32,000 nucleotides of DNA from Pseudomonadota bacterium (GTDB taxonomy: Bacteria > Pseudomonadota > Alphaproteobacteria > UBA2136 > UBA6156), in the NCBI GenBank assembly GCA_016125035.1, contig WGMN01000001.1:4617-36616 (forward strand), read 5' to 3'. Position 1 is the stretch's first letter. Each line of letters opens with the position of its first letter. The notes beneath the pieces are model-generated. The model saw only the letters and a program-made list of their open reading frames with translations, did no database searches and was not told the DNA's origin. Below, one piece after another: positions 102 through 18,917 of this stretch. A program made the translations under genes and the position numbers.

Positions 102-584
102 TTATGCCTCCGTCTTTTCAGTTGCTTGTTCAGGTTTGGCTTCAGCCTTGGCGGTGGTGGCGGGCTTGGAAGCTTTGGCGGCTTTGGGAGCGGCGGCCTT
201 TTTTTCCACCTTGGGGGCGGCCTCGGAGACCACCACGGTGAGGTGGCAGCGCGGCTTGAGGATGGCACCGGCGCGGCCACGGGCGCGGGCGTGCCAGCGC
301 TTGAAGACCATGCCTTTATCGGCATAGGCCTGGGCAACGATAAGCTTATCGACGTTCAGGCCGTGGTTGTGCTCGGCATTGGCGATGGCCGATTGCAGCA
401 CCTTTTTGACCACCGGGGCCTGCTTTTTACGGCAGAAGGTGAGCTCGTTGAGCGCGCGCTCGACCGGCTTGCCGCGGATGAGATCCATGACCAGCTGGGC
501 CTTGGTGTAGCTGCCCTTGGTGTCGCGCAGCGCGGCAAAAGCCTCGTTGGCGGCGACCAGGCGGGGAGAGTTGGGTTTGCTCAT
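102..584 (-). CDS. rplV: 50S ribosomal protein L22 with Lys/Ala-rich C-terminal extension
   Basis: 160-aa ORF with L22-typical core ([23 protein letters not shown]...[21 protein letters not shown]). Synteny is rpsS-rplV-rpsC. The C-terminal tail is [30 protein letters not shown]. Confidence 0.95.
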
Positions 585-597
585 GATGCGTTACCTC

Positions 598-900
598 TTA
601 CTTCTTGGCCGAGCTTGCAGCGGCTGCGGCGGCCAGGGTTTTCTTGTCCGGGTGGGCAATGAAGGTGCGCGTGGGAGCGAACTCACCCAGTTTGTGACCG
701 ATCATGTTGTCGGTGATCAGCACCGGAATGAACTTGTTGCCATTGTGCACCGCGAAGGTGATGCCGATGAAATCCGGCATGATGGTGGAACGGCGGGACC
801 AGGTCTTGATGACCTCCTTTTTGCCGCTGCCTTGAACCTTGGCCACTTTTTTGGCCAGGCTGCCATCCACGAAAGGACCTTTTTTGACGGAACGTGCCAT
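598..900 (-). CDS. rpsS: 30S ribosomal protein S19
   Basis: [12 protein letters not shown]...[29 protein letters not shown] is canonical S19. Synteny supports the call. Confidence 0.97.
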
Positions 901-918
901 GTTTTGCTCTCCCTAATC

Positions 919-1752
919 CTAGCGTTTGCTGTTGCGGCGACGGATGATCATCCGGCTGCTCGGCTTACGGCGGTTGCGTGTTTTGGTACCCTTGGTGCCC
1001 TTACCCCACGGCGTGACCGGGTGACGGCCGCCGGAGGATTTACCCTCACCACCACCGTGCGGGTGGTCGACCGGGTTCATCACCACACCACGGACGGAGG
1101 GGCGCTTGCCCAGCCAGCGCGTGCGGCCGGCCTTACCGATCTGGGTGTTCATGTTATCCGGGTTGCTGACCGAACCGATGGTGGCGAGGCAGGCCTCGTG
1201 CACCAGGCGGACTTCGCCAGACGGCAGGCGCAGCTGGATGTAGGCGCCGTCCTTACCCGCGACCTGCACAGAGGAGCCGGCGGAACGGGCCATCTGGCCG
1301 CCGCGACCAGCCTTGAGCTCCACATTGTGGACCACGGTGCCGACCGGAATGTTTTTGAGCGGAAGCGCGTTGCCGGGCTGGATTTCAGCCTGCGGGCCGG
1401 ACATGACCGTATCGCCGCCCTTGAGCTTTTGCGGGGCGAGGATGTAGGCTTTTTCGCCGTCCTTATATTCAATAAGGGCGATGAAGCCGGAGCGGTTGGG
1501 ATCGTACTCCAGGCGGATGACCTTGGCCGGAACGCCGAACTTGGTGCGCTTGAAATCGATGATGCGCAGGCGGCGCTTGTGCCCGCCGCCGCGTTGCCAC
1601 GAGGTGATGCGGCCGCGGTTGTTACGCCCGCCGGTGCCGGACAACGGCTCGGTCAGCGAACGCTCCGGGGAGCCTTTCCACAGCTCGGAACGGTCGACCG
1701 TGATGAGCTGGCGGCGGCCGGCGGAGGTGGGGTTGTGGGTTTTAAGGGCCAT
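919..1752 (-). CDS. rplB: 50S ribosomal protein L2
   Basis: 277 aa containing [19 protein letters not shown] and [15 protein letters not shown]2 hallmarks. Confidence 0.98.
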
Positions 1753-1764
1753 GGGGTTGTCTCC

Positions 1765-2079
1765 TTACTTCACGCCGGCCATGAGGTCGAGGCTCTGGCC
1801 GCTTTTGAGTTGGATGAAGGCTTTTTTAACGTCGCCACGTTGGCCGGCGCGGCCTTTGAAGCCACGGGCCTTGCCCTTTTGGATGAGCGTGTTGACGCGA
1901 GTGACTTCCACACCGTAGAGGCGCTGCATGGCCTCTTTGATTTCCGGCTTGGTGGCGCCCGGCGCGACCTCGAAGGCCAGCCAGTTGCCGGCTTCGGCGA
2001 CCTTGCTGGTTTTCTCGGTGACCAGGGGGCGGACCAGCACCTGGTAGTGCTTTTCAGCGGGAGCGGTTTTGCTGCTCAT
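1765..2079 (-). CDS. rplW: 50S ribosomal protein L23
   Basis: 104 aa, YQVLVRPLVTEKTS...TRVNTL...KKAFIQL pattern. It sits between rplD and rplB. Confidence 0.93.
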   Translation of the reverse strand: MSSKTAPAEKHYQVLVRPLVTEKTSKVAEAGNWLAFEVAPGATKPEIKEAMQRLYGVEVTRVNTLIQKGKARGFKGRAGQRGDVKKAFIQLKSGQSLDLMAGVK

Positions 2080-2083
2080 GGGG

Positions 2084-2782
2084 TTACTCCTTCACCTTGG
2101 TAGTTTTTTTGGCGGCGGGCTTGGCGGCCTTGGCAGCCTTGGCGGCGGGCTTGGCCTTTTCTTCAGTGCCGAGGCGCGCGCTGAGCATTTCCACCGCCTT
2201 GCTGGTGATGACCAGCTTTTCATGGTGGAGAATATCGTAGACGTTGGCGCCGGAGGTGGGGATGACCTTGACCAGCGGCAGGTTGCGGCTGGCGCGGTCG
2301 AAGTTGGTGTCTACGCTATCGATAATGAAGGTGGCGTTGAGGGCGCCGAGCTTTTCAAGGCTCTTGGCCAGATCTTTGGTTTTGGCGGACTTGACGGCGG
2401 CCTCATCGATGATGATCAGGTTTTTGCCGGCAGCCTTGGAAGACAGCGCGGTTTTGAGCGCCAGCATGCGGACCTTTTTGGGCAGGCTGGTGGAGAAATC
2501 ACGCGGGCGGGGACCAAACACCACGCCACCGCCGACGAACAGGCTGGGCGACTTGGCGCCGTGGCGGGCTCCGCCGGTTTTTTTCTGGGCGTAGACCTTC
2601 TTCTTGGAGCGGTCGATCTCGCCGCGGGTGAGGGTGTTGGCCAGACCGGCGCGGCGGGCATCGAGCTGCCAGTTGACGGCGCGTTGCAGCAGGTCGGCGC
2701 GCACTTCCACGCCGAACACGGCCGGGGAAAGCGCGAGCGAACCGCTCTTTTTGCCTTCCAGGGTGAGGATGTCGAAGTTCAT
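2084..2782 (-). CDS. rplD: 50S ribosomal protein L4 with Lys/Ala-rich C-terminal tail
   Basis: 232 aa with an L4-like core (QKKTGGARHGAKSPSLFVGGGVVFGPRPRDF). The tail is EEKAKPAAKAAKAAKPAAKKTTKVKE. Synteny supports the call. Confidence 0.95.
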   Translation of the reverse strand: MNFDILTLEGKKSGSLALSPAVFGVEVRADLLQRAVNWQLDARRAGLANTLTRGEIDRSKKKVYAQKKTGGARHGAKSPSLFVGGGVVFGPRPRDFSTSLPKKVRMLALKTALSSKAAGKNLIIIDEAAVKSAKTKDLAKSLEKLGALNATFIIDSVDTNFDRASRNLPLVKVIPTSGANVYDILHHEKLVITSKAVEMLSARLGTEEKAKPAAKAAKAAKPAAKKTTKVKE

Positions 2783-2801
2783 TTTCCTGATTCCCTTTTA
2801 A

Positions 2802-3464
2802 TTACTTAGCCGAAGCTTGTTTGGTTTTGGCGGCGTCGCGCACAACGATGAAACCGCCCTTGGCGCCTGGCACGCTGCCGCGCAGCAGGATGAGGCCTTG
2901 CTCGTCATCCACGCGCACCACTTCCAGGTTTTGGGTGGTGACGTTCTCGTTGCCGTAGTGGCCGGCCATCTTCTTGTTTTTGAAGACGCGGCCCGGATCC
3001 TGGCGTTGACCGGTGGAACCGTGGGAACGGTGGGAAATGGAGTTACCGTGGGTGGCACGGCCGCCGCCGAAGTTCCAGCGGAACATGACACCGGTAAAGC
3101 CGCGGCCTTTGGTGACACCGGCGACATCCACCAGCTGGCCGGCCTTGAAGTGGCTGGGCTTGAGCTCGGTGCCGATGGCGGGCAATTCGCCGGCGGGAAC
3201 GCGGAATTCCACCAGCTTTTGCTTGGGCTCGACGCCAGCCTTTTTGAAGTGGCCGAGCTCGGGGCGGGCAACGCGGGAGGCCTTTTTGGCAAAGCCGCCG
3301 ACCTGGAGGGCGGAGTAGCCTTCCTTCTCTACGGTGCGTTGGGCGATGATCTGGAGGCCTTCGACCTGCAGCACGGTGACCGGGATGTGGCGACCGTCTT
3401 CAGCGAAAATACGGGTCATGCCGACCTTTTTGGCGAGCAGGCCGTGACGGGAAGTGTTAGGCAT
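2802..3464 (-). CDS. rplC: 50S ribosomal protein L3
   Basis: L3 core ([13 protein letters not shown]...GHFKKAG...[17 protein letters not shown]). I place the start at the MPNTSRHG Met (3464) because GGGAGGA lies about 9 nt upstream. The ORF-track start at 3503 would overlap rpsJ. Confidence 0.93.
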
Positions 3465-3480
3465 ATCAGTGTCCTCCCGC

Positions 3481-3804
3481 TTAAAGCTTGATTTGCACGT
3501 CAACGCCGGAAGCGAGGTCGAGCTTCATCAGCGCATCGATGGTTTGCGGGGTGGGATCGAGGATCTCCAGCACGCGCTTGTGGGTGCGCATCTCGAAGTG
3601 CTCGCGCGACTTCTTGTCGATGTGGGGGGAGCGCAGCACGCAGAAACGCTCGATGTTGGTGGGCAGCGGAATGGGCCCTTGCACCTTGGCGCCGGTGCGC
3701 TTGGCGGTTTCTACGATCTCGATGGTGGATTTATCGAGCATGCGGTAATCGTACGATTTCAACCGGATGCGGATGTTCTGCGCGGCTTCGACGGGCGTGG
3801 CCAT
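3481..3804 (-). CDS. rpsJ: 30S ribosomal protein S10
   Basis: [39 protein letters not shown]...RTHKRVLEI is canonical S10. The start is taken at [10 protein letters not shown] (3804), preceded by GGGAGGAATCCTTCGCC. The longer ORF-track N-terminus is not S10-like. Confidence 0.95.
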
Positions 3805-3965: not shown

Positions 3966-3994
3966 GGTATAGGGCGGATGGCGGGGAGTGTCAA
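3966..3994 (-). promoter_or_regulatory. Predicted sigma70-type promoter of the S10 operon
   Basis: Minus strand: TTGACA (3994-3989), 17-nt spacer CTCCCCGCCATCCGCCC, TATACC (3971-3966), then GC-rich discriminator GCGCCC. The extended -35 context CCCTTGACACTCCCC is identical to that of the rpoB promoter. Confidence 0.6.
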
Positions 3995-4040
3995 GGGAAA
4001 AGGGGCGGAAATGTTGGCGTGGCGGAGAGGTGCTGCGGCG

Positions 4041-4136
4041 CAGGCGGCAAAAGGCGGCGAAACGCTGCGGTGGGGCGGCAGAAAAGCGGCAAAAAGCGGC
4101 GAAAGGGCGGCAAGGGCGGGGCAAAAGCGGCGGAAC
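4041..4136. repeat. Degenerate ~10-bp tandem repeat (RGCGGCRAAA) giving helically phased A-tracts
   Basis: The region reads aggcggcaaa aggcggcgaaa ... gggcggcagaaa agcggcaaaa agcggcgaaa gggcggcaa gggcggggcaaa agcggcggaa. A-run centres lie near 4050, 4061, 4083, 4093, 4103, 4112, 4124 and 4134. Confidence 0.6.
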
Positions 4137-4137
4137 A

Positions 4138-4230
4138 CTGCGACAGCAGCAGGCCGCATGCGAGGAGCGTGGACCTGCGTCGTGCTTGCGAGGGCCGGGC
4201 CCGCGACGGTGCTATGGCCGGAGGCCAAAA
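4138..4230 (+). repeat. Copy A of a ~92-bp imperfect direct repeat (conserved ends, variable core)
   Basis: The 5' block ctgcgAcagcagcaggccgcatgcgagg (4138-4165) and 3' block ggtgctatggccggaggcca (4208-4227) recur at 4643-4669 and 4711-4730. Confidence 0.7.
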
Positions 4231-4441
4231 CTCTGGCGTTGACTGTTGGCGCAGAAACCCGATAGTTAAGCCGTGGCGAAAGCCATGGGGCGTAGAAACC
4301 TCTAGACAAGCCAACCCGTGTGTCGGGGAGGCGGTTAATATAACAAGCTGCGAGGCTGAATAGCCGCGCCATTGTCTAGATGGTTCTAACTCCCCGGCTC
4401 TCTCTTGAGGGCCGTTGTTTTTAACAACAAGGGAGATGATT

Positions 4442-4546
4442 ATGAGAGATTGGTGCTGGCTTTTGACACGGCGGGCGGTGGTGGGGATTTTGGTGATGTT
4501 GGGGTTTTGGTGTGTGGTGGCGGGGGTGGTTTGGGTTTGGTGGTGA
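4442..4546 (+). CDS. Candidate small hydrophobic peptide (34 aa, MRDWCWLLTRRAVVGILVMLGFWCVVAGVVWVWW)
   Basis: ATG at 4442 is preceded by AAGGGAG with a 7-nt spacer. The product has a positively charged N-terminus followed by one Trp/Val/Gly-rich TM-like helix, with TGA at 4544-4546. It is below the ORF-track size cutoff and no promoter was identified. Confidence 0.3.
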   Translation: MRDWCWLLTRRAVVGILVMLGFWCVVAGVVWVWW

Positions 4547-4642: not shown

Positions 4643-4733
4643 CTGCGCAGCAGCAGGCCGCATGCGAGGCCAGCCGTTTTGCCAGACGAAGGCGGCAAAA
4701 CGGCTAGGCCGGTGCTATGGCCGGAGGCCACAA
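4643..4733 (+). repeat. Copy B of the ~92-bp imperfect direct repeat
   Basis: It shares both end blocks with copy A. The core forms a 16-bp stem (GGCCAGCCGTTTTGCC / GGCAAAACGGCT(A)GGCC, 4668-4710) that is absent from copy A. Confidence 0.7.
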
Positions 4734-4757
4734 TACGGCTTAGAGGCCACATTTCGC

Positions 4758-4786
4758 TTGACTTTTGCCACAAGTTCACCTATGAA
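4758..4786 (+). promoter_or_regulatory. Predicted sigma70-type promoter of the plus-strand cassette
   Basis: TTGACT (4758-4763), 17-nt spacer, TATGAA (4781-4786), about 70 nt upstream of the 4855 ATG. A weak 5-bp hairpin plus T6 (4798-4816) lies in the leader. Confidence 0.5.
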
Positions 4787-4854
4787 TTGTCATAGTCGCC
4801 GCGAGGTGGCTTTTTTGTTGGAATCAGTGCAACTGGCGGTGGTAGAGTGGCTTC

Positions 4855-5412
4855 ATGAAGAAGGTGATGGTGCTTGGTTTGGTGGTGGCCGCGCAGGTGG
4901 GGTGGGCGGATACACCGTTGGATATCAAGTACGGTGCCAATGAGATAGACCTGAATAACGACGGCGTGAAGGACCTGATTGTGCGGGTGCGGTGGGATAA
5001 CTTGAATGCGCACTCGTTTGATAAGTACCTGGTGGCCTTGCGGCTTGGAAAAGAAAGCGGGGAAGAGCCGGTTCTTTACGACGTGCCAATTGGAAAGAGC
5101 GCCGGTTATGACCATCCCTTGCTGATGACCGAAGAAGCGGCGGATTGCGCCACTAAAGATGATAAAACCATTCACCTTGGGTACATGTTTAGCCTTGATA
5201 AACGCGGCTACTTGCAGATTACGGAGTTTAACCGGATTGAGAAGGAGCCCGCGGATAACTACCCGGTTGAAGTAACAACCTACCGGTTAACCCATGCGGG
5301 GGTGGATAAGGAAATTGGGGTTTTGCCAGGTGATCCGATTTGGTATTTGAAAGAAGTGAAGGAGGTGAGGGCTCAGCGCAGGGTATGTGATGTGAGAGAG
5401 TTGATGAGGTAG
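4855..5412 (+). CDS. Secreted protein of unknown function (signal peptide; DxNxDGxxD motif)
   Basis: 185 aa. The N-terminus MKKVMVLGLVVAAQVGWA/DT looks like an SPase I signal. IDLNNDGVKDLIV resembles FG-GAP/EF-hand-like Ca-binding loops. There are two Cys in the mature part. GC is visibly lower than in the flanks. Confidence 0.8.
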   Translation: MKKVMVLGLVVAAQVGWADTPLDIKYGANEIDLNNDGVKDLIVRVRWDNLNAHSFDKYLVALRLGKESGEEPVLYDVPIGKSAGYDHPLLMTEEAADCATKDDKTIHLGYMFSLDKRGYLQITEFNRIEKEPADNYPVEVTTYRLTHAGVDKEIGVLPGDPIWYLKEVKEVRAQRRVCDVRELMR

Positions 5413-5424
5413 TTGGTTAAGATC

Positions 5425-5453
5425 AACGGGCGGGCCGGGTGGCCCGTTTTTTT
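5425..5453 (+). terminator. Intrinsic terminator-like hairpin between cassette genes 1 and 2
   Basis: CGGGCC-gggt-GGCCCG (5431-5446), or alternatively AACGGGC...GCCCGTT, followed by T7 (5447-5453). It lies 13 nt after the gene-1 stop and just before the gene-2 SD (GGGGAGG). Confidence 0.6.
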
Positions 5454-5469
5454 ATGGGGAGGTAAAGAG

Positions 5470-6120
5470 ATGGTTCAGTTTAAGTGGCACACCGCAGGCT
5501 CGGATACATGCTTTAAGTGTGCGAGGTGGGAGGCGCGCATTTTCAAAAATTTGGGGGAGGTTCCCGAATTGCCGGTGCATCCGAATTGCCAATGTTTTAT
5601 TGAAGCTTTGACTGAGGACGACCTCAAGAAACTGGCGGAGGTGGGCAGACAATTGGAAGCGGGCTCGGCGGAAGTGGAGGAAGGGATAGCCCAATTCTCT
5701 CTTTACAGTGGCCTTTCCTATCTTCTGGAGCGCTTGGTTTCAGCCGCAAAAGAGCTTTTGGGAGAGCTTTTACAGATAAGCCAGACGTTTGAGATATTTC
5801 GGCAGAACTATGACGCCATGAAAAAAGCAAACACCATCGGAGCCGACAAATACTTTCACTCCAAGGCAAATGCCGAGGCGGCGCAACTGGGGGTAATAGG
5901 CGAAGCGACAGCGAAGTTTATAAGTGATTTCAGAGAGTTTTATGAGTACTATACGAATGTTCACCTTAAGGGGATGTCTTTAAAAGCTACGATTGAAGAC
6001 ATGAACGCCGACCAGCGGGCAAACTACAGGGGACGGGTGAGAGGGCGTCAGTTTCCTGACCGTGATGCCGGTGAACTGGTTAAAGACCAACGACCGAATG
6101 GATTGGGTGAGAAATACTGA
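5470..6120 (+). CDS. Fusion protein: MuF/SPP1-gp7-type zinc knuckle (N-terminal) + helical linker + serum amyloid A (SAA)-like domain (C-terminal)
   Basis: The start is taken at MVQFKWH (ATG 5470), 8 nt after GGGGAGG. The N-terminus is WHTAGSDTCFKCARWEARIFKNLGEVPELPVHPNCQC. The C-terminus NYDAMKKANTIGADKYFHSKANAEAAQLGVIGEATAKFISDFRE...ADQRANYRGR...RPNGLGEKY* matches human SAA1 motifs [25 protein letters not shown]...ISDARE...ADQAANEWGR...RPAGLPEKY*. Confidence 0.85.
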   Translation: MVQFKWHTAGSDTCFKCARWEARIFKNLGEVPELPVHPNCQCFIEALTEDDLKKLAEVGRQLEAGSAEVEEGIAQFSLYSGLSYLLERLVSAAKELLGELLQISQTFEIFRQNYDAMKKANTIGADKYFHSKANAEAAQLGVIGEATAKFISDFREFYEYYTNVHLKGMSLKATIEDMNADQRANYRGRVRGRQFPDRDAGELVKDQRPNGLGEKY

Positions 6121-6476
6121 TGTCTAGACTTCTGGCGCATGTGGCCCGTGTGGTTGCCGTGGTGATGCTGGCTGCCTATTTGCTCCTGCTGGTGCATATT
6201 CCCCTGTTGGCGGGAGAGCCGAATTGGGTGCTGGGAACATGGCTCGGCATCGGAGTGGCTGTGCTGGGGGTGGGATGTTGGCTTGTTTATGCCTTTTCAT
6301 GGCGCAAGTTTGCCGTGTGGTCGGTTCTGGTAATAGCAATGCACGGAATGGTTTGGTGGGTGCCCGCAGTGAGGGGTCCTTTCGCCCACGATTCATGTCT
6401 GGACAGAGGCGGGAAGTGGTATGCGGATGGAACTTGCGAAGGAGCACGGATGCCTTCCCCGAGCACCACCCCCTAG
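6120..6476 (+). CDS. Small integral membrane protein (about 3 TM helices plus Cys-containing C-terminal tail), translationally coupled to the SAA-like gene
   Basis: 118 aa. The start ATG overlaps the upstream TGA (TGATG at 6118-6122). There are three hydrophobic segments, then HDSCLDRGGKWYADGTCEG. Confidence 0.7.
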   Translation: MSRLLAHVARVVAVVMLAAYLLLLVHIPLLAGEPNWVLGTWLGIGVAVLGVGCWLVYAFSWRKFAVWSVLVIAMHGMVWWVPAVRGPFAHDSCLDRGGKWYADGTCEGARMPSPSTTP

Positions 6477-6498
6477 AGGGAAGCTGGGGTTAAAAAGC

Positions 6499-6519
6499 AA
6501 GGGGCCCATGAGGCCCCTT
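6499..6519. terminator. Bidirectional terminator hairpin between the cassette and rpoC
   Basis: AAGGGGCC-catga-GGCCCCTT, a perfect 8-bp stem. On the minus strand it is followed by GCTTTTTAAC, downstream of the rpoC stop at 6537. Confidence 0.6.
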
Positions 6520-6536: not shown

Positions 6537-9500
6537 TTACTGAATCTCGGGCGTCACGTCCTTGGCCAGGGCGCCGTGGCGCATGTGGCGCAGCAGGCGG
6601 CCGGTACCGGCCGGGATGAGGCGGCCGACGATGACGTTCTCCTTGAGGCCGTTGAGCCCGTCTTGCTTGCCCATGGTGGCGGCTTCGGTAAGCACGCGCG
6701 TGGTCTCCTGGAACGACGCGGCGCTGATGAAGCTGCGCGTGGTGAGCGACGCCTTGGTGATGCCCTGCAGGTGCAGTTCATATTCCGCAGGCACTTTGCC
6801 CGCCAGCACCAGTTTGGCATTCTCCTCGCGCACCTCGAACAGGTCGGCCATTTCGCCGTTGACGAAGGTGCTCTCACCCGGCTTGGTGATCATCACCTTT
6901 TGCAGCATCTGGCGGATGATCGTCTCGATGTGCTTATCGTTGATCTCCACACCTTGCAGGCGGTAGACCTCCTGGATCTGGGTGACCATGTAGTCGGCCA
7001 GCGCCTCGATGCCCTGGGCCTTGAGGATGTCGCGCGGATCGATGGCGCCTTCCACCAGCATTTCGCCGGCTTCGATGTAGTCGCCCTCGCGCACGTTGAG
7101 GTGAATGCCCTTGGGTACCAGGTACTCGCGCTGTTCTTCCTCGCCGTTATCCAGCTTGGAGTTGACCAGGATGCGGCGCTTGCCTTTCAGGTCTTTCCCG
7201 AAGGCCACGATGCCGGGGACTTCGTTGAGAATTGCCGAGTCCTTCGGTTTGCGGGCCTCGAAGAGTTCCGCCACGCGGGGCAGACCCCCGGTGATGTCCT
7301 TGGACTTCAGCGTTTCCTTGGGCATACGGGCGATGATATCGCCGGCCTGGATGGTGGCGCCGTCATCCACCGTGAGGATGGCGCCGACCGGCAGCGCATA
7401 GACCGCCTGGGAGCCGTTGGGCAAGGTGACGATCTTGCCCTTGGCATCCATGAGGATGATGGCGGGCTTCATGTCGGCGGCGCGGGCGGATTGCTTCCAA
7501 TCCAGCACCACGCGCGAGGTCATGCCCGAGGTCTCGTCGGTCTTTTCCTGCACGGTGACGCCTTCCTGCAGATCGAGGAAGTGCACCACGCCCGCCGTTT
7601 CCACGATAATGGGAACGGTGTAGGGATCCCAGTCGGCGACAGTGGCACCGGCCTTGAGCTTGGCGCCATCCTTGACCGCCAGGCGCGCGCCGTAGGGCAG
7701 CTTGAAGCTTTCGCGCTCGCGGCCCGCGTCGTCGACCAGTTTGGCCTCGGCGTTACGCGACATGACGATGGCTTCGCCTTCGCCGTTGGTGACGGTAATG
7801 ACACCTTCCAGCTTGAGCGTGCCGTCGCGGCTGACCTCGGCCTTGGATTGCACGGTACCCGCCGCCGCCGCACCACCGATGTGGAAGGTACGCATGGTGA
7901 GCTGGGTGCCGGGTTCGCCGATGGATTGCGCGGCGATGACGCCAACCGCCTCGCCGATGGTGACCGGCGTGCCGCGGGCAAGATCGCGCCCGTAGCAGGC
8001 GGCGCAGATGCCGTCGGTGTTTTCACACGTGAGCGGGCTGCGGATGGCCACGCGCTCGATGCCGGCCTTCTCGATTTGGGCCACCAGCGCTTCATCGATG
8101 ATGGTGCCGACCGGGCAGATGACGTTGCCGGTGAGCGGGTCGAGGACCTCGTGCGCGGCGGTACGGCCGAGGATACGCTGGGACAGCGGCTCGACGATGT
8201 TACCGGCCTGGGTGATGTCTTCCACCACGATGTGGCGCTCGGTGCCGCAGTCTGGCGAGGTGATGACGCAGTCTTGGGCGGCATCCACCAGGCGGCGGGT
8301 GAGGTAACCGGCGTTGGCGGTTTTAAGCGCGGTATCGGACAGCCCCTTACGCGCGCCGTGGGTGCTGATGAAGTATTGCAACACGGTGAGGCCTTCGCGG
8401 AAGTTGGCGGTAATCGGCGTTTCGATGATCTCGCCGTTCGGCTTGGCCATCAACCCGCGCATACCGGCGAGCTGGCGCATCTGCGCGGGGGAACCACGGG
8501 CGCCCGACGTGCTCATCATGTAGATGGAGTTGATGCTGGGTTGCACCTTCTCCTCCGCCGTTTTGCCCTTGCCGACGGTGATGGGCTGGTCGCCAATGGC
8601 CTTCATCATCGCGGCGGCGATGGCGTCGGAGGTGCGTTGCCAGATATCGACCACCTTGTTGTACTTTTCGCCAGAGGTGATGAGACCTTCCTGGTATTGT
8701 TGCTCGAACTTGCGGACTTCACTTTCCGCGAACTCCACCATCTTGGTTTTGTTCTCGGGGATGACCATGTCGTTCTTGCCGAACGAGATGCCGATCTTGG
8801 CGGCAAAGCGGAAGCCGAGTTGCATCAGCCTGTCGGCGAAGATGCAGGTCTCCTTCTGACCGCAGGCCAGGTAGACCTCGTGGATGAGGCGGCCCACTTC
8901 TTTTTTGGTCATGACCTTGTTGACCGCTTCGAAGCCGAGCTTGTTGCTCTCTGGCAAAATGGAGCCCAGGTAGGCGCGGCCCACCGAGGTATCGTAGGTT
9001 TTGCCGCGGTAGCGGTACTTGATGCGCGTGTGCAGGGTGACCGCCCGGTTCATCAGCGCGTGCTCGAGCTCGCCGAGGTCGGCGAACAGGGAGCCTTCGC
9101 CCGGCAGGTTGTAGCGCGCCAGGGAGATCCAGTAGAGGCCGAGAATCATATCCTGCGAGGGAACGATAACCGGTTTACCATCAGCGGGTTTGAGGATGTT
9201 GTTGGTGGACATCATCAACACGCGGGCCTCGATCTGCGCTTCCAAGCTCAGCGGCACGTGGACGGCCATTTGGTCGCCGTCGAAGTCCGCATTAAAAGCG
9301 GTACAGACCAGCGGGTGCAGTTGGATGGCCTTGCCTTCCACCAGCTTGGGCTCGAACGCCTGGATACCCAGACGGTGCAGGGTGGGCGCGCGGTTGAGCA
9401 GCACGGGGTGCTCGCGGATGACTTCTTCCAAAACGTCCCACACCACGTCTTCCTGGCGTTCCACCATTTTTTTGGCGGCCTTGATGGTGGTGGCTTCGCC

Positions 9501-10667
9501 ACGCATTTCCAGCTTGTGGTAGATGAAGGGCTTGAACAGCTCCAGCGCCATGGTTTTGGGCAGGCCGCACTGGTGCAGCATGAGATCCGGCCCCACGGTG
9601 ATGACCGAACGGCCGGAGTAGTCGACCCGTTTGCCGAGCAGGTTCTGGCGGAAGCGGCCTTGTTTGCCCTTGAGCATGTCGGCGAGCGACTTCAGCGGGC
9701 GCTTGTTGGCGCCGGTGATGACGCGGCCGCGGCGGCCATTGTCGAACAGGGCATCCACGGATTCTTGCAGCATGCGCTTTTCGTTGCGCACGATGATCTC
9801 CGGCGCGCGCAGTTCGATGAGGCGCTTCAAGCGGTTGTTGCGGTTGACCACGCGGCGGTAGAGATCATTCAGGTCCGACGTGGCGAAGCGGCCGCCGTCG
9901 AGCGGGACCAGCGGGCGCAGTTCCGGCGGCAGCACCGGGACGACGTCCATGATCATCCACTCCGGCTTGTTGCCGGAATCCAGGAACGCATTGACCATTT
10001 TGAGGCGCTTGACGATCTTGCGGCGGCGCAGGTCTGACACATCCTCGGTCAGGTCGGCGGAGAGCTCGGCCTGCAGCTTGGGCAAATCCAGCGAGCGCAG
10101 GATGTTGCGCAGGGCTTCGGCGCCGATCTGTGCGGTGAAGCTGTCTTCGCCGAATTCTTCCACCGCCTGGTAGTACTCTTCCTCATTGATGAGCTGGCCC
10201 TGGGTGAGCGTGGTCATGCCGGCATCCACCACCACCCATTTCTCGAAGTAGAGGATGGCCTCGAGGTCTTTCAGCGTCATTTCCAGAAGAGCGGCCATGC
10301 GCGACGGCAGCAGCTTGAGGAACCAGATGTGCGCGACGGGCGCGGCGAGCTCGATGTGGCCCATGCGCTCACGGCGCACTTTGGATTCAATGACTTCCAC
10401 GCCGCACTTTTCGCACACGATACCGCGGTGCTTCATGCGCTTATATTTGCCGCACAAGCATTCGTAATCCTTAACAGGGCCGAAGATGCGGGCGCAGAAG
10501 AGCCCGCCGTGCTCTGGCTTGAAGGTGCGGTAGTTGATGGTCTCCGGCTTTTTCACTTCGCCGAAGGACTGGGCACGGATTTGTTCCGGGCTGCACAGCG
10601 AGATGCGGATGGCATCGAACTGCTTGGCCACGGGCTGTTGCTGGAACATGTTCATTAAGTTGTTCAT
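6537..10667 (-). CDS. rpoC: DNA-directed RNA polymerase subunit beta'
   Basis: 1376 aa with zinc-binding [23 protein letters not shown], catalytic [12 protein letters not shown], and bridge-helix/trigger-loop regions. AAGGAA SD lies upstream, 15 nt after the rpoB stop. Confidence 0.99.
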
Positions 10668-10682
10668 GGTGCGTTCCTTACC

Positions 10683-13600
10683 TTAGGCGTTGAAGTCTTC
10701 AGTGATGCGGTGCAGGCCGGGGCGCGAGCGGCGCGGGCCGCCTTGCGCCTGGGCTTGCTGCTCCAGCAGACTGGGCTGGCGACCGATATCGGTGCGGAGA
10801 TCGGGGCCTTCGCCGGTTTCCACCAGGTCGACGTTCAGGCCCAGGGATTGGATTTCCTTGACCAGCACGTTGAACGACTCGGGGATACCCGCCTCGAAGT
10901 TGCTTTCCCCACGCACGATGGCTTCGTACGTTTTGGTACGGCCGGAGACGTCATCTGACTTGATGGTGAGCATTTCCTGCAGGGTGTAGGAGGCGCCATA
11001 GGCTTGCAGCGCCCACACTTCCATTTCCCCAAAGCGTTGGCCACCGAACTGGGCCTTACCGCCGAGCGGCTGCTGGGTGACCAGCGAGTACGGCCCGATG
11101 GAACGCGCGTGGATCTTCTCATCCACCAGGTGGTGCAGCTTGAGCATATACATGATGCCGACCGTGCTCTTCTGCTCGTACGGGTCGCCGGTGCGGCCGT
11201 CGAACAGCTGGGTTTTGCCGGACTCATCGCAGCCGGCCACCTTGAGCAGGCCGGTGATGGCGTCTTCAGGCGCGCCGTCGAACACCGGGCAGGCCACTGG
11301 CAGGCCGCGGCTGAGGTGCCCGGCCATTTCGACGATTTCGGCGTCCGACAGGTCTTTGAGCGAGCTGACGGTGCCTTTGTCTTCATACAGGCTTTCCATG
11401 TACTTGCGCAGGGCCTTGGTATCCGGCTTTTTGCCGCCGGCCTTGGCCTCGGCCAGAAGCTCCGCCACCTTGCGGCCGATGCCGTAAGCGGCCCAGCCCA
11501 GGTGGGTTTCCAGGATTTGGCCGACGTTCATCCGGCTGGGCACGCCCAGCGGGTTGAGCACCATATCCACCGGACGGCCGTCTTCCAGGAAGGGCATGTC
11601 CTCCAGCGGGTTAACCTTGGAGATGACCCCCTTGTTACCGTGGCGGCCGGCCATTTTATCACCCGGCTGCAGCTTGCGCTTAACGGCGACGAAGACCTTG
11701 ACCATTTTGAGCACGCCCGGGGGCAACTCATCGGCTTGGCGGATCTTGGCCGTTTTTTCATCAAACCGCTTCTTCAGCGCGGTGAGCGATTTATCCAGCG
11801 CGGCGCGCAGGGTTTCGATGTCGCGTTGGGCTTTGTCGCCAGCCACGGAGATGGACCACCATTCGGTCGGCTTCATCTCGTCGAGCACGTCGGCGGTGAT
11901 CTCTTTGCCTTTGGCGAGTTTGCCGGACTTGGCGGCGGTTTTCTCCTTGATGAGGAGCTTGCGCAGGCGGTCGTAGGCGTCGGCCTCGATGATGCGGCGC
12001 TCGTCCTCGATGTCCTTGGTGAGGCGGGCGACTTCGGCGGATTCGATCTCGAGCGTGCGGGTGTCTTTTTCAGCGCCGCGGCGGTTGAAGATCTTGACGC
12101 CGACCACGGTGCCGTTGACGCCCGGCGGCAGGCGCAGGGAGGTATCACGCACATCGGCGGCCTTCTCGCCGAAAATGGCGCGCAGGAGTTTTTCTTCCGG
12201 GGTCATCGGGCTCTCACCCTTGGGGGTGATCTTGCCGACCAGGATATCGCCGGCCTTGACCTCGGCGCCCACGGCGATGATGCCGGCTTCGTCGATGCTG
12301 CGCAGGCCTTCTTCGCCGACGTTGGGGATATCGCGGGTGATCTCCTCGCTACCCAGTTTGGTATCACGCGCCATCACCTCGAATTCATCGATGTGGATGG
12401 AGGTGAAGATATCCTCGCGCACGATGCGCTCGGAGATGAGGATACTATCTTCGAAGTTATAGCCGTTCCAGGGCATGAAGGCGACCACCACGTTGCGGCC
12501 CAAGGCGAGTTCGCCGAGCTCGGTGGACGGGCCGTCGGCGATGACGTCTCCCGCTTTGACCGTATCGCCGATGCGCACCAGGGTTTTCTGGTTCAAGCAG
12601 CTGCTCTGGTTGGAGCGTTGGAACTTGGTGAGGCGGTAGATATCCACGCCCGATTGGCCGGATTGCACGCCGGAGGTGGCACGCACCACGATGCGCGAGC
12701 CGTCGACGCTTTCCACCACCCCATTGCGGCGGGCGACGGTGGTAATGCCGGAATCACGCGCCACGGTGGCTTCCATGCCGGTACCCACCAGCGGGGCATC
12801 GGTGCGGATGAGCGGCACCGCCTGGCGTTGCATGTTGGAACCCATCAAAGCGCGGTTGGCGTCGTCGTGCTCCAGGAACGGAATGAGCGCCGCGGCGATG
12901 GACACCACCTGTTTGGGCGAGACGTCCATGTAGGTGACTTCCGAGCTGGGCATCAGCAGGGTTTCGCCCTGTTTGCGGCATTCCACGAAGTCGTCCTTCA
13001 GCGTGGATTTTTCGGTCAGTTCGGTGTTGGCCTGGGCGATGGTTTCGCGGCCTTCCTCGATGGCGGACATGTAGACCACTTTATCGGTGACCTTGCCGTT
13101 TTCCACCTTGCGGTACGGGGTTTCAATAAACCCATACTTGTTGATGCGGGCGTAGGTGGCCAGGCTGTTGATAAGACCGATGTTCGGGCCTTCAGGCGTT
13201 TCGATCGGGCAGATGCGGCCGTAGTGCGTGGTGTGCACGTCGCGCACTTCAAAGCCCGCGCGCTCACGCGTGAGACCGCCGGGCCCCAGGGCGGAGAGGC
13301 GGCGCTTGTGCGTGACTTCCGACAGAGGGTTGGTCTGGTCCATGAACTGGGACAGTTGCGAGGAGGCAAAGAACTCACGCAGCGCGGCAGACAAGGGGCG
13401 GCTGTTGATGAGGTCATTGGGCATCATGTCGCCGATTTCGGTGGAGCCCATGCGCTCTTTGACCGAGCGCTCCATGCGCAGCAGGCCGATGCGGACCTGG
13501 TTTTCCATCAGCTCGCCCACCAGGCGCACGCGGCGGTTGCCCAGGTGGTCGATGTCATCGACCGGCTCGAAGCCGTCGCGGATGCGGTGCAGCGCGCGCA

Positions 13601-15077
13601 GGGTTTCTACAAAGTCTTCGCGTTGCAGGATGCGTTGGTCATCCGGCGACTTCAGGCCCAGGCGGGCGTTGAGCTTCATCCGGCCCACGGCGGAGAGATC
13701 GAACTTATCGGTATCGAAGAACAGGCCGTTGAACAGCTTGGTGGAGGTTTCCACCGTCGGCGGTTCGCCGGGGCGCATGACCTTATAGATCTCCACCAGC
13801 GCTTCTTCAGGGCTGTTGGTTTTATCCACCTGCAGGGTGTTGCGGACGTAGGCGCCGACGTTGAGGTGATCGACCTTGAGGATCTTGAACTCCTTCATGC
13901 CGAGCTTTTCCACCGCGGCGAGCACTTCGTCGGAGACTTCGGTACCTGCCTCGAACAGCACCTCGCCGGTTTCCTTATCCACCAGGCTTGTGGCGAGGAA
14001 GCGGCCCTTGAGATCTTCGTTGGTTTGGGCCACCCATTTGACGCCGGCTTCCTGCGCCTGGCGGATCTGGCGGCGGGTGGGCTTTTTGCCGGCTTCGGCG
14101 ATGACCTTGCCTTTATCGGCATCGACCAGGTCGGCGGCCAGTTTGACGCCTTCATAGAACATCGGCTCGAAGGCCAAGGCGTAGGTGCCGGTGAGTTCCA
14201 CCGCCACGGGCACGGCCTTTTTGGCCTTGACCGACTTGGTCTTGGTAACTTTGGCGGGCTTCTCGGCCTTGGCTTCTTTGCCCTTAGTGGCCTTCTTGGC
14301 CTTTTTGGGGGCTTCTTCTTCCGCTACCGGCTCTTCCTTCTTCGGCTTGGCCTTGCCCGGAGTGACGCGGACGGAGACTTTGTCGTAGTAGGTATCGATA
14401 ATTTCCTGCGTGGAGAGGCCCAGCGCGCGCAGCAGCACGGTGGCCGGCAGTTTGCGCTTGCGATCGATGCGCACGTAGATGTTGTCTTTGTGGTCGAATT
14501 CGAAATCCAGCCAGGAGCCGCGGATGGGAATGACCCGCGCGGTGTAGAGCAGTTTGCCGCTGCTGTGGGTGGTGCCGTCATCGTGGCTGAAGAACACGCC
14601 CGGGGAGCGCTGCATTTGCGAAACCACCACGCGCTCTGTACCATTCACGATGAAGGTGCCGTTGGAAGTCATCAAAGGCACGTCGGCCAGGTAGACCTCT
14701 TGCTCTTTGATATCCTTGACCGAGCGGGCGCCGGTGGCGTGGTCGACATCCCAGATGGTGAGGCGCAGGGTGACGCGGCAGGGCGCGGCGAAGGTGAGGT
14801 CGCGCGTGCGGCATTCGTCGATATCGTACTTGGGCTCTTCCAGGCGGTAGCCGAGGTAGTCGAGTTCGGCGATGCCGGCGTTGTCCTTCATCGGGAAGAT
14901 GGAGTTGAACGCGCCGTCGAGCGTGTAGAAGGTGGTTTTGCTGGTCTTCTTCTCTTGCAGGAAGAGATCGTAAGAAGCTTGCTGCATTTCCAGCAGGTTG
15001 GGGATGGACGCCACGCTGGCCAGGCGGCCAAAATTTTTGCGAATGCGCTTGCGCTCGGTGAAAGACAGGTTGGACAT
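10683..15077 (-). CDS. rpoB: DNA-directed RNA polymerase subunit beta (with Lys/Ala-rich insertion at aa ~240-290)
   Basis: 1464 aa starting [17 protein letters not shown]. It contains conserved blocks ([29 protein letters not shown]). SD AAGGGGAG lies 8 nt before the ATG. Confidence 0.99.
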
Positions 15078-15398: not shown

Positions 15399-15941
15399 AT
15401 GTACCTTGCACCGGAGAAATACCCTTTTGTGACCGATTTAGCGACCCTGCGCATACCGAGTGAAGAGGTTGACCCTTGCGACCCGGCGACGCTGGAGCTG
15501 GCCACGGAGATGTTTGTGACCATGGGCCAGTTAGGCGTTGGGTTGGCCGCTATCCAGCTGGGGGTGCCCAAGCGGGTGGTGGTTATCCACCCCTGCAAGA
15601 TCTACACCCCCACGCCGGTGGAGAATGAGACCTTCTTCATGGCCAACCCGGAGTTGCTTGAGGTTTCCAAGGAGACCTCGGTGGCAGTGGAGAGCTGCCT
15701 TTCCATCCTTGCCTTGCCGCAAGACACCGATACCCTGGCCCCGCCCCTGCTGAAGGTGGAGGTGGAGCGCCCGGTGTGGGCGGTGGTGCGCTTTTTTGAC
15801 CTGCGCGCACAAGAGGTGAGGACCCTGAAGAGGGAAGGCTTTGACGCGCGGGTGCTGCAGCATGAGATCGATCACATCATCAAGCCGCCGAAGTTGATCA
15901 TTGACTACCTGCCGGGGCGGAAGTTGGCTGCGGCGGGGTGA
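15399..15941 (+). CDS. def: Peptide deformylase-like protein (divergent paralog)
   Basis: 180 aa with the three PDF motifs: GVGLAAIQ (motif 1), ESCLS (variant of EGCLS, motif 2) and QHEIDH (HEXXH, motif 3). The SD GGGGAGG sits only 1 nt before the ATG. Confidence 0.8.
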   Translation: MYLAPEKYPFVTDLATLRIPSEEVDPCDPATLELATEMFVTMGQLGVGLAAIQLGVPKRVVVIHPCKIYTPTPVENETFFMANPELLEVSKETSVAVESCLSILALPQDTDTLAPPLLKVEVERPVWAVVRFFDLRAQEVRTLKREGFDARVLQHEIDHIIKPPKLIIDYLPGRKLAAAG

Positions 15942-18324: not shown

Positions 18325-18756
18325 TTAGTCGACGACGGTCAGGCCCATGGAACGGGCGCTGCCTTCGATGATCTTGGTAGCCGCTTCAATGCTCTCGGCA
18401 TTGAGGTCGACCATTTTGGCCTCGGCGATTTTACGCACTTCGGCGCGCTTGACCTCACCCACAGGTTTGTTGGGAGTGGCCGCGCCTTTTTGGATTTTGG
18501 CGGCCTTCATCAGGTACCAGCTGGCCGGCGGCGTCTTCATCTCGAAGGTGAAGGTGCGGTCGCCATAAGCGGTGATGATGACAGGAACCGGCGTGCCAGG
18601 CTGGAACTTGGGCGGCTGGGTGGCCGCGTTGAACGCCTTGCAGAATTCCATGATGTTAAGGCCTTTTTGGCCCAGGGCCGGACCCACGGGCGGGGCCGGG
18701 TTGGCTTGCCCAGCCGGCACTTGCAGCTTGACGTAGCCAGCGATTTTCTTCGCCAT
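18325..18756 (-). CDS. rplK: 50S ribosomal protein L11
   Basis: [44 protein letters not shown] is canonical L11. The start is set at this Met (18756) rather than the ORF-track start at 18789. Confidence 0.95.
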
Positions 18757-18809
18757 TTCATATACTTTCGTTCGGTTTTGAACTTCCACATGCGCGCACG
18801 TGGTAGGGC

Positions 18810-18838
18810 CGTATAGCGGGGGGCGCGGGGGGTGTCAA
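18810..18838 (-). promoter_or_regulatory. Predicted sigma70-type promoter of rplKA
   Basis: Minus strand: TTGACA (18838-18833), spacer CCCCCCGCGCCCCCCGC (17 nt), TATACG (18815-18810). An A5 tract lies just upstream of the -35. Confidence 0.55.
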
Positions 18839-18917
18839 GTGCGCCTTTTTGTGCGGCAGGGGGGTTGGCGGCGGCCGCAGACCAGCTTAATGTGGTGGCA
18901 AAATAAAGGGTTAGCCT

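Follow-up and report, generated by a model that had tools for sequence, protein, structure and literature searches.

The window, as we call the 32-kb stretch of contig WGMN01000001.1 (assembly GCA_016125035.1, Pseudomonadota bacterium) that was analysed as a whole, carries a cassette of three plus-strand genes between rpoC and rpsJ. These genes, referred to as genes 1, 2 and 3, are the subject of this work. They are listed here together with the parts of the gene 2 product, whose model was calculated with AlphaFold2 (AF2) and scored by the predicted local distance difference test (pLDDT).

4855-5412, plus strand: gene 1, open reading frame (ORF) of 185 amino acids (aa), MBI1308242.1
5470-6120, plus strand: gene 2, ORF of 216 aa, MBI1308243.1
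5470-5610, plus strand: MuF-type zinc knuckle, gene 2 aa 1-47, with C14, C17, H37, C40 and C42
5614-5796, plus strand: long helical hairpin linker, gene 2 aa 49 to ~109 (AF2, pLDDT 54-83)
5797-6120, plus strand: prok-SAA Lipocone domain, gene 2 aa 110-216
6120-6476, plus strand: gene 3, ORF of 118 aa

The TGA stop of gene 2 and the ATG of gene 3 overlap by one base (TGATG). A first-pass annotation, made from the letters of the sequence, had described these three ORFs and their overlap, a signal-peptide protein with a DxNxDGxxD loop (gene 1), a fusion of a MuF knuckle with an SAA-like domain (gene 2) and a protein with about three transmembrane segments (gene 3). All of these features were recovered. 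The annotation had also noted an AT-rich, horizontally acquired look, which was borne out when the composition was calculated against the window. The GC content was 0.516, 0.495 and 0.585 for genes 1, 2 and 3, and the GC content at third codon positions (GC3) was 0.64, 0.55 and 0.62, compared to 0.74-0.85 in nine flanking genes. The span of genes 1 and 2 (GC 0.506) was among the lowest-GC stretches of equal length in the window, with z = -5.5 relative to windows outside the span, and the fifteen lowest-GC stretches all overlapped the cassette. The tetranucleotide distance likewise reached its maximum over the cassette, at 4801-6400. No tRNA was found in the 32-kb window, and no integrase, transposase or phage gene (portal and terminase included) among the window ORFs scanned; for tRNA, integrase and transposase this agrees with the first-pass annotation.

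As reported by Burroughs, Nicastro and Aravind (eLife 2025, PMC12419801), the Lipocone superfamily unites Wnt, SAA, TelC, VanZ and phosphatidylserine synthases, with a predicted common activity on phosphate-linked lipid head groups and an ancestral set of His (H2), Glu (H3) and Asp (H4); the SAA-Wnt clade has an sNxxGR motif. The authors described prok-SAA domains as polymorphic-toxin tips, delivered by type VI secretion systems (T6SS)/Rhs or MuF, with immunity proteins, Imm-SAA, that are anchored by transmembrane (TM) segments. Judged from its sequence, the product of gene 2 is soluble and belongs to the prok-SAA Lipocones, and its predicted active site is intact. The Pfam SAA model (PF00277) matched aa 110-216 with E 5e-19 (69 bits, cut-off 30.8), and the gene 2 family profile matched the SAA sequences of the PDB with E 2e-24. 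Our search of 5.8 billion proteins gave 52 relatives, ~30 of them full-length at 35-57% identity; the full-length relatives came from Proteobacteria/Alphaproteobacteria and Melainabacteria (Gastranaerophilales) metagenome-assembled genomes (MAGs) and from metagenome contigs. The same SAA domain forms the C-terminal tip of Rhs-repeat proteins (P0035, P0045-P0048, P0051).

In an alignment of 25 homologues, the knuckle residues C14, C17, H37, C40 and C42 were invariant, as were D126, Y128, F129, H130, K132, R155, E156, D181, N185, G188 and R189 of the SAA part. The predicted catalytic set comprises H130, E156, D181 and A184-N185-Y-R-G188-R189, where A184 is nearly invariant, and it fits what is given for active SAW-clade Lipocones, with His in H2, Glu in H3, Asp in H4 and the sNxxGR motif. 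The C-terminal end of Pfam Phage_Mu_F (PF04233) was matched by eight of the 25 homologues (best E 7e-5), and aa 6-55 of gene 2 gave a weak match to phrog_1657 'head morphogenesis' (E 1e-3). The AF2 model of gene 2 (pLDDT 83.5) shows the knuckle as a beta-hairpin, the linker as a long helical hairpin and the C-terminal part as a bundle, with helices 83-120, 126-140, 142-166, 171-194 and 200-203 (pLDDT >89). The four-helix cone with a short fifth helix, which is the fold of the SAA-Wnt clade, is present in this model. A Foldseek search placed human SAA1 and mouse SAA3 at the top, and the bundle superposes on them with TM-score 0.87-0.90, root-mean-square deviation ~2 Å and 33% identity. The activity to expect of such a protein would be the one that the literature infers for the prok-SAA family, namely to cleave or exchange lipid head groups that are linked through phosphate.

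Two statements of the first-pass annotation, namely that no known toxin or immunity family was recognisable and that the cassette was a candidate uncharacterised system, are contradicted by the literature. The prok-SAA Lipocones and their Imm-SAA partners are already published and computationally catalogued (PMC12419801), and the catalogue includes gene 2 itself, since MBI1308243.1 is a row in the published Prok-SAA sequence table.

Gene 3 is translationally coupled to gene 2 and encodes a membrane protein of the kind found downstream of prok-SAA toxins. Hydropathy indicated three TM helices (~aa 11-31, 36-58 and 64-84), followed by a 34-residue tail that is predicted to be periplasmic, FAHDSCLDRGGKWYADGTCEG, with the cysteines C93 and C106 in a DSCLDRGGKW...C pattern. 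The outward orientation of the tail is predicted from the positive-inside rule and from single-TM relatives. Gene 2 homologues were examined at 63 loci other than the window, and 59 related loci have enough downstream sequence for counting gene 3. By phmmer, gene 3 homologues lie directly 3' of the gene 2 homologues in L002-L008 and L063, and a downstream TM protein with a DxCLDxG motif was present in at least 38 of the 59 loci by a strict motif count. Nearly all Melainabacteria loci have a one- or three-TM DxCLDxGxC...C...C protein downstream of the toxin. Most of the loci outside the 38 belong to Bacteroidota, many with long Rhs-type proteins. In these Bacteroidota loci (L044-L058, MAGs), the SAA domain, often an Rhs tip, is followed instead by a ~125-aa lipoprotein, which appears to be, presumably, a second immunity class for the SAA toxin domain. 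In L007, the toxin is followed by three tandem gene 3-type genes. In L008 (5156-6140), the toxin gene is broken up into the ORFs 5156-5512 and 5651-5806 and the immunity gene is intact, beside a tRNA-Gly gene; the toxin appears to have decayed there and the immunity to have been retained.

Within the proteobacterial gene 3 subfamily, D91, C93 and G97 are invariant, and D95, G98, W100 and C106 are nearly so. The published Imm-SAA domain has four absolutely conserved cysteines, with an alpha-helix and four beta-strands (PMC12419801). Our hhalign comparison of the gene 3 profile with the four-Cys Imm-SAA gave E 8e-5 and a probability of 61% over 21 columns, covering the C...GxW...C unit. This suggests, and is consistent with, a shortened form of Imm-SAA in which the outer cysteine pair has been kept. 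We must also note that an exact-sequence lookup of the gene 3 protein returned a Logan assembly only, and that genes 1 and 2 have NCBI accessions; gene 3 may be unannotated in the deposited MAG.

Gene 1 encodes what its sequence indicates to be a secreted, distant homologue of CarG. It has the N-terminal signal-like segment MKKVMVLGLVVAAQVGWA and the loop D32-x-N-x-D-G-x-x-D40 (aa 32-40), which is invariant across the gene 1 family. The protein scored 30.6 bits against the Pfam CarG-like model PF21955 (cut-off 28), and a profile of eight gene 1 homologues matched CarG (PDB 4o7j) with E 2e-6, aligning query positions 20-178 with chain positions 2-145 and taking in the GVNxxDINxDGxKD motif. The identity of gene 1 was taken from this profile match because the AF2 model, calculated from an eight-sequence alignment, failed (pLDDT 39.5).

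The neighbourhood of gene 2 homologues, proposed in the first-pass annotation as a check on an effector/immunity-like module of three genes, divided the cassette. Genes 2 and 3 are held together by the co-occurrence described above, whereas a gene 1 homologue was present in none of the 63 other gene 2 loci; gene 1 does not as a rule accompany SAA toxins, and the co-occurrence lends little weight to a three-gene system. Eight relatives of gene 1 were obtained by a word-indexed search and three more loci by a metagenome scan. With L066/L067 and L070/L071 each counted as one, there are ten contexts with a relative, and the window is the eighth informative one. Two of the ten contexts, L075 and L076 (both at 29% identity), showed nothing relevant by tblastn, and no relative was found in viral contigs. 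In the seven other informative contexts (L066/L067, L068, L069, L070/L071, L072, L073 and L074), the CarG-like gene adjoins a gene for a small protein with an AWRNNNPGN motif. This RNNNPGN family has an invariant W-R-N-x-N-P-G-N and no Pfam model, and it is found by itself or with a MuF knuckle fused at the C-terminal end, in every case next to a CarG-like gene (examples are L068 7075-7527, L073 2486-3004 and L070 923-1574). The RNNNPGN domain matched the N-terminus of the 1295-residue virion protein Gp29 (PDB 9vvp; E 4e-16), an endolysin (7q47; E 2e-5) and PHROG 873 'endolysin'. It runs into a MuF knuckle in L070, L073 and L074; the fusion in L070 is split over two overlapping ORFs, and the frame in L074 is interrupted. 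Altogether, a MuF knuckle is fused to or near the RNNNPGN gene in four of the seven other contexts of gene 1 relatives.

Two of these contexts are the most informative. In L070, the order is CarG-like gene, RNNNPGN/MuF, large terminase, DUF6973, a 90-aa ORF, P22-type portal, a 55-aa ORF and DUF6973, which is a phage packaging module. In L068, 3 kb hold an RNNNPGN gene, a three-TM Imm-SAA-like gene, a CarG-like gene, a TM protein and a DUF6973::MuF-knuckle protein. DUF6973 sequences with DAFRH...NNxxGR appear to carry the signature of Min-Wnt Lipocones, as far as the family is laid out in the published family table. The conserved adjacency is that of a CarG-like gene and an RNNNPGN endolysin-like gene; in the window, the SAA effector and its immunity gene fill that position. 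CarG-like proteins are also linked, more loosely, to MuF-knuckle effectors, because there are seven RNNNPGN contexts, four with a MuF knuckle, and L068 has an Imm-SAA-like gene. Such MuF-knuckle effectors occur in phage-like elements, most of them from Alphaproteobacteria MAGs and unclassified metagenome contigs. No RNNNPGN protein was detected in the 32-kb window by tblastn, no car-like biosynthetic gene among the window ORFs scanned, and in the phage and tailocin literature the text matches to CarG were the word 'cargo' alone.

Several relatives of the gene 2-gene 3 pair are carried by mobile elements. L007 is an island of 11.2 kb that lies between two direct repeats of 51 nt (2311-2361 and 13481-13531), one of which is the 3' end of a tRNA-Met gene; its cargo comprises an integrase, an AlpA-type helix-turn-helix protein, a primase/helicase, the SAA toxin, three Imm-SAA genes and an NgoFVII-type restriction-modification system. 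The island adjoins rpsL-rpsG-fusA. An affinity for the str region was considered and rejected, as the nearness to rpsL is explained by integration at tRNA-Met. L006 has the same backbone as L007, and the pair in L002 abuts a tmRNA gene. Two further loci are phage head/packaging modules, with portal, capsid, SAA-like gene and Imm-SAA in order in L063, and an SAA-like gene alongside a large terminase and a 613-aa ORF in L062. The cassette itself looks like a stranded islet, because the window is without the landmarks of its relatives' islands, tRNA/tmRNA sites and phage modules.

Genes 2 and 3 are probably an effector/immunity pair of the polymorphic-toxin type that stems from a phage or a genomic island, and gene 1 a CarG-like protective or accessory protein. 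The domain identities, the conserved residues, the gene order, the co-occurrence and the foreign composition are established. For the substrate, the delivery route, the topology, the neutralisation of the toxin and the role of gene 1, we infer the following mechanism. By analogy with TelC, the helical cone of gene 2 would hold the lipid tail, and the enzyme would cleave the phosphate-linked head group of lipid II, of another undecaprenyl-linked precursor or of a phospholipid, acting at the outer (periplasmic) face of the inner membrane of the target cell. TelC is the sole experimentally tested Lipocone toxin, a lipid II phosphatase that is active outside the cytoplasm only (PMC12419801). Gene 2 would be harmless in the cytoplasm of the producer because it has no signal peptide, and it could be delivered in phage particles, packaged via the knuckle, or be released by lysis. 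The TM helices of gene 3 would display the small disulfide-bonded tail in the periplasm, where the tail would bind and block the toxin, and the TGATG coupling would tie the synthesis of immunity to that of the toxin. For gene 1, the most likely role is that of a protective or accessory protein in the periplasm, derived from a CarG-like/lysin-MuF pair whose effector would since have been replaced by the SAA toxin.

A number of observations weigh against this interpretation. Gene 2 itself gave no Phage_Mu_F match at E<=1 in Pfam, and its MuF portion is the last ~50 positions of that domain. The protein has no signal peptide, and the 32-kb window has no portal, terminase or other phage gene that would show its delivery route. 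The tail of gene 3 has two cysteines compared to the four of the published Imm-SAA. Between genes 1 and 2 stands a terminator-like hairpin, and few loci underlie the role proposed for gene 1. Moreover, no member of the prok-SAA/Imm-SAA family has been experimentally tested for activity, target or neutralisation.

The phage-like relatives raise the possibility that the cassette is a remnant of a prophage or gene-transfer agent, in which gene 2 would be packaged in the virion, tethered to the portal via its knuckle and ejected with the DNA, and would act on lipid-linked envelope precursors for genome entry. In that case gene 3, perhaps with gene 1, would serve to shield the lysogen or to keep out superinfecting relatives and have no part in interbacterial competition. 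We hold this to be rather unlikely, and it overlaps the effector/immunity interpretation, from which it differs mainly in biological purpose. It draws on L070, where the gene 1 homologue and the RNNNPGN/MuF gene directly precede the large terminase, with Min-Wnt (DUF6973) and P22-type portal genes after it, as well as on the gene orders of L063 and L062, on the RNNNPGN domain being the N-terminus of the virion protein Gp29 (PDB 9vvp), and on the finding that MuF proteins, which attach to the portal, are located in the capsid (PMC5576092). It is opposed by the lack of any phage structural gene in the window, by the occurrence of the 216-aa proteobacterial form as cargo of integrase/primase islands that have no capsid genes, and by the SAA domains at the tips of Rhs toxins, which are competition weapons. 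Improbable, in our view, is one obligate three-component system in which the SAA toxin needs the periplasmic gene 1 protein, be it as co-immunity factor, as receptor or as chaperone. The three genes are indeed adjacent, on the same strand and all low in GC; in L068, 3 kb contain a gene 1 homologue together with an Imm-SAA-like gene and a Min-Wnt::MuF-knuckle protein, L070 has such a homologue with MuF and Min-Wnt genes, and CarG protects against a cell-wall-active antibiotic (PMC11778176). Nevertheless, no gene 1 homologue accompanies gene 2 at its 63 other loci, the relatives of gene 1 pair with the RNNNPGN endolysin-like gene and not with SAA in seven other contexts, and the hairpin between genes 1 and 2 is strong.

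It is highly improbable that the cassette is an anti-phage abortive-infection module, with the Lipocone effector released or activated on infection and damaging the host envelope. Min-Wnt Lipocone domains are predicted in antiviral systems (PMC12419801), and the L007 pair lies in an island next to a restriction-modification system; on the other hand, none of the three proteins had a PADLOC match, the cassette contains no sensor or regulator component, and the predicted periplasmic immunity domain fits the interception of an incoming toxin. Hardly any credence can be given to resident housekeeping envelope genes of odd composition, with the SAA-like protein as a factor that binds or modifies lipids of the cell's own membrane. 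Such a role would suit the core chromosomal neighbourhood with no integrase, and eukaryotic SAA is a lipid- and retinol-binding protein (title of PDB 6py0). It would not suit a family that is patchy and cross-phylum and is found on islands, phages and Rhs tips, nor a cassette with GC3 0.2-0.3 under that of the neighbouring genes, nor a small, fast-evolving membrane partner that is tightly coupled and sometimes present in tandem arrays, nor the split toxin gene beside an intact immunity gene in L008.

Beyond the effector/immunity interpretation of genes 2 and 3, a more general proposal can be put forward as a speculation that we ourselves find doubtful. The PF21955 relatives would form an as yet unrecognised protective or accessory family dedicated to small envelope-attacking MuF-knuckle effectors (RNNNPGN, Min-Wnt/DUF6973 and prok-SAA), the ~50-residue knuckle would be a portable capsid-packaging tag at either end of the effector, and the cassette would be a recombinant in which an SAA tip with its immunity gene has replaced the lysin.

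The surroundings of the cassette and the signals within it are the following (plus-strand features are read in the direction of the cassette; ΔG, folding free energy; sRNA, small RNA).

102-3804, minus strand: rplV, rpsS, rplB, rplW, rplD, rplC and rpsJ
3481-3804, minus strand: rpsJ (S10), Pfam-confirmed
4144-4250 and 4648-4770, plus strand: ~110-nt duplicated element, copies 504 nt apart
4322-4425, plus strand: sRNA-Xcc1-like element, full-length sub-threshold Rfam match
4758-4786, plus strand: promoter-like hexamers TTGACT-N17-TATGAA at the 3' end of the duplicated element (sequence reading)
4794-4811, plus strand: hairpin with T-run between the promoter-like site and the gene 1 start, ΔG -10 kcal/mol, z -1.7
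5428-5453, plus strand: GC-rich hairpin with T7 between genes 1 and 2 (stem 5428-5449), ΔG -15.2 kcal/mol
5769-5798, plus strand: promoter-like TTTACA-18-GATATT with TG, inside gene 2 (consensus scan)
6519-6499, minus strand: intrinsic terminator hairpin of rpoC, convergent with the cassette, ΔG -23.6 kcal/mol, z -4.5
6537-10667, minus strand: rpoC, Pfam-confirmed
10683-15077, minus strand: rpoB

Both hairpins named in the first-pass annotation, the rpoC terminator and the terminator-like structure with its T7 run between genes 1 and 2, were found again. The latter resembles an intrinsic terminator and is a putative attenuator or read-through point. By-eye inspection found no room for a promoter just 3' of its stem, and genes 2 and 3 therefore need read-through, an upstream promoter or an internal one. 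The site at 5769-5798 might drive immunity-only transcription, for which the evidence is very weak; the region has two promoter-like sites with 1.2 expected by chance, so this one is at chance level. The promoter assigned to the cassette in the first-pass annotation (4758-4786) stands as far as its hexamers go. The -10 hexamer TATGAA has no T at position 6, the consensus promoter scan did not call the site, the TTGACT belongs to the duplicated element, and the terminator-like hairpin at 4794-4811, which the annotation had not mentioned, intervenes before gene 1; it might act as a leader/attenuator or end a transcript that comes from upstream.

The duplicated ~110-nt element has conserved flanks, CAGCAGCAGGCCGCATGCGAGG ... 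CGGTGCTATGGCCGGAGGCCA, around a variable centre, with TTGACT at its 3' end. An exact 20-mer of it occurs twice (0.03 expected), and there are two copies in the whole window and no more. They precede the sRNA-like element and gene 1, respectively, and may represent a duplicated regulatory region. The sRNA-Xcc1 match (4322-4406) reached 39 bits against a gathering score of 53, with a local E of 3e-5; no Rfam match in the window passed the gathering thresholds, and NCBIfam gave no meaningful match. The element ends in a strong hairpin with a T-run (ΔG -15.5 kcal/mol, z -4.5), and a promoter-like TTGACT-16-GATAGT lies upstream at 4239-4266. sRNA-Xcc1 is an integron- or transposon-borne sRNA, and the element at 4322-4425 is possibly a horizontally moving small RNA gene. 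The sub-threshold match and the 4144/4648 duplication prompted the idea of an integron gene cassette with an attC array. This idea was rejected, as the conserved flanks do not pair into an attC-like hairpin, copy 1 folds no better than shuffles, and the element is present in two copies only in the window. Just downstream of the sRNA-like element, a 34-codon ORF (4442-4546, plus strand) would encode the very hydrophobic, Trp-rich peptide MRDWCWLLTRRAVVGILVMLGFWCVVAGVVWVWW. It has an AGGGAG Shine-Dalgarno-like site 6 nt upstream; its DNA is GT-rich and of low complexity, and the ORF may be due to chance.

Between rpsJ and the cassette, ~1 kb holds no convincing gene. This non-coding 1 kb upstream of rpsJ contains, at 3990-4140, three imperfect repeats with a period of 41-42 nt that are rich in GGCGGCAAAAG-type units. 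The first-pass annotation had placed the cassette in the slot of a missing str operon. The absence holds, as tblastn found no rpsL or rpsG anywhere in the 32 kb; the slot idea is loose because the ribosomal superoperon is rearranged elsewhere too. A peptide deformylase gene (def; 15399-15941, plus strand) lies between rpoB and rplL on the strand opposite to its neighbours, and nusG, secE and tuf are absent beside rplK, where 18325-20579 holds instead a 553-aa plus-strand ORF with no Pfam match.

In genes 2 and 3, a MuF-knuckle::prok-SAA toxin and its Imm-SAA partner are seen in clean and compact form, and there is little new in kind. The pair, of 216 and 118 aa, is a convenient test case for whether SAA-type domains are lipid-head-group hydrolases, and it could show how a ~30-residue disulfide-bonded tail might neutralise an SAA-type toxin. 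The adjacency of CarG-like and MuF-knuckle-effector genes, seen at few loci, is the one lead here, a modest one, that goes beyond the literature searchable to us; the recurrent CarG-like/endolysin-like pairing bears on what CarG-type proteins do.

The closest known systems are the MuF toxins with prok-SAA tips of Burroughs et al. (PMC12419801), who listed 'Prok-SAA: T6SS, MuF, TM+[TM+TM+]Imm-SAA' and whose network file contains MuF with C-terminal Prok-SAA (19) and downstream Imm-SAA (14). Bacterial prok-SAA domains have been proposed as ancestors of animal serum amyloid A. Our locus shares with these toxins the MuF element followed by prok-SAA, the His/Glu/Asp set with sNxxGR, and the downstream TM+TM+TM+Imm-SAA layout. 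It differs in that the MuF part of gene 2 has ~47 residues and is the terminal knuckle alone, that the gene 3 tail has two cysteines and not four, and that the locus stands alone, as a chromosomal islet with rpoC on one side and rpsJ on the other. It also has a CarG-like gene upstream, and CarG is not mentioned in that paper.

The TelC-TipC pair of Streptococcus intermedius shares with gene 2 the Lipocone superfamily and an action that, for gene 2, is predicted to occur outside the cytoplasm only. TelC belongs to the TelC clade and gene 2 to the SAA-Wnt clade; unlike gene 2, TelC comes from a Gram-positive organism, and its delivery is by a type VII secretion system with an LXG domain. The immunity partner TipC, a lipoprotein that faces the periplasm, has an unrelated fold. 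TelC has been tested experimentally, and no member of the prok-SAA family has. As in the MuF polymorphic toxins reported by Jamet et al. (BMC Biol 2017, PMC5576092), the N-terminus here derives from MuF, the C-terminal toxin is variable and an immunity gene follows, and the gene 2 relatives in L063 and L062 lie in phage head/packaging modules. Those toxins have a full MuF domain (PF04233, PF06152, MuF3 or MuF4) in an N-terminal region of ~250 aa, whereas gene 2 has the knuckle alone; their genes lie just downstream of the portal gene, 96% of them in prophages or remnants, whereas the flanks here are S10 and rpoC. CarG of carbapenem resistance in Pectobacterium and Serratia (PDB 4o7j), which together with CarF gives carbapenem producers their intrinsic resistance (PMC11778176), resembles gene 1 in being secreted, in its similar size and in the GVNxxDINxDGxKD motif. 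The similarity is low and was detected by profile alone, and there are no car genes here; the relatives of gene 1 are linked to endolysin-like and MuF genes, and not to antibiotic biosynthesis.

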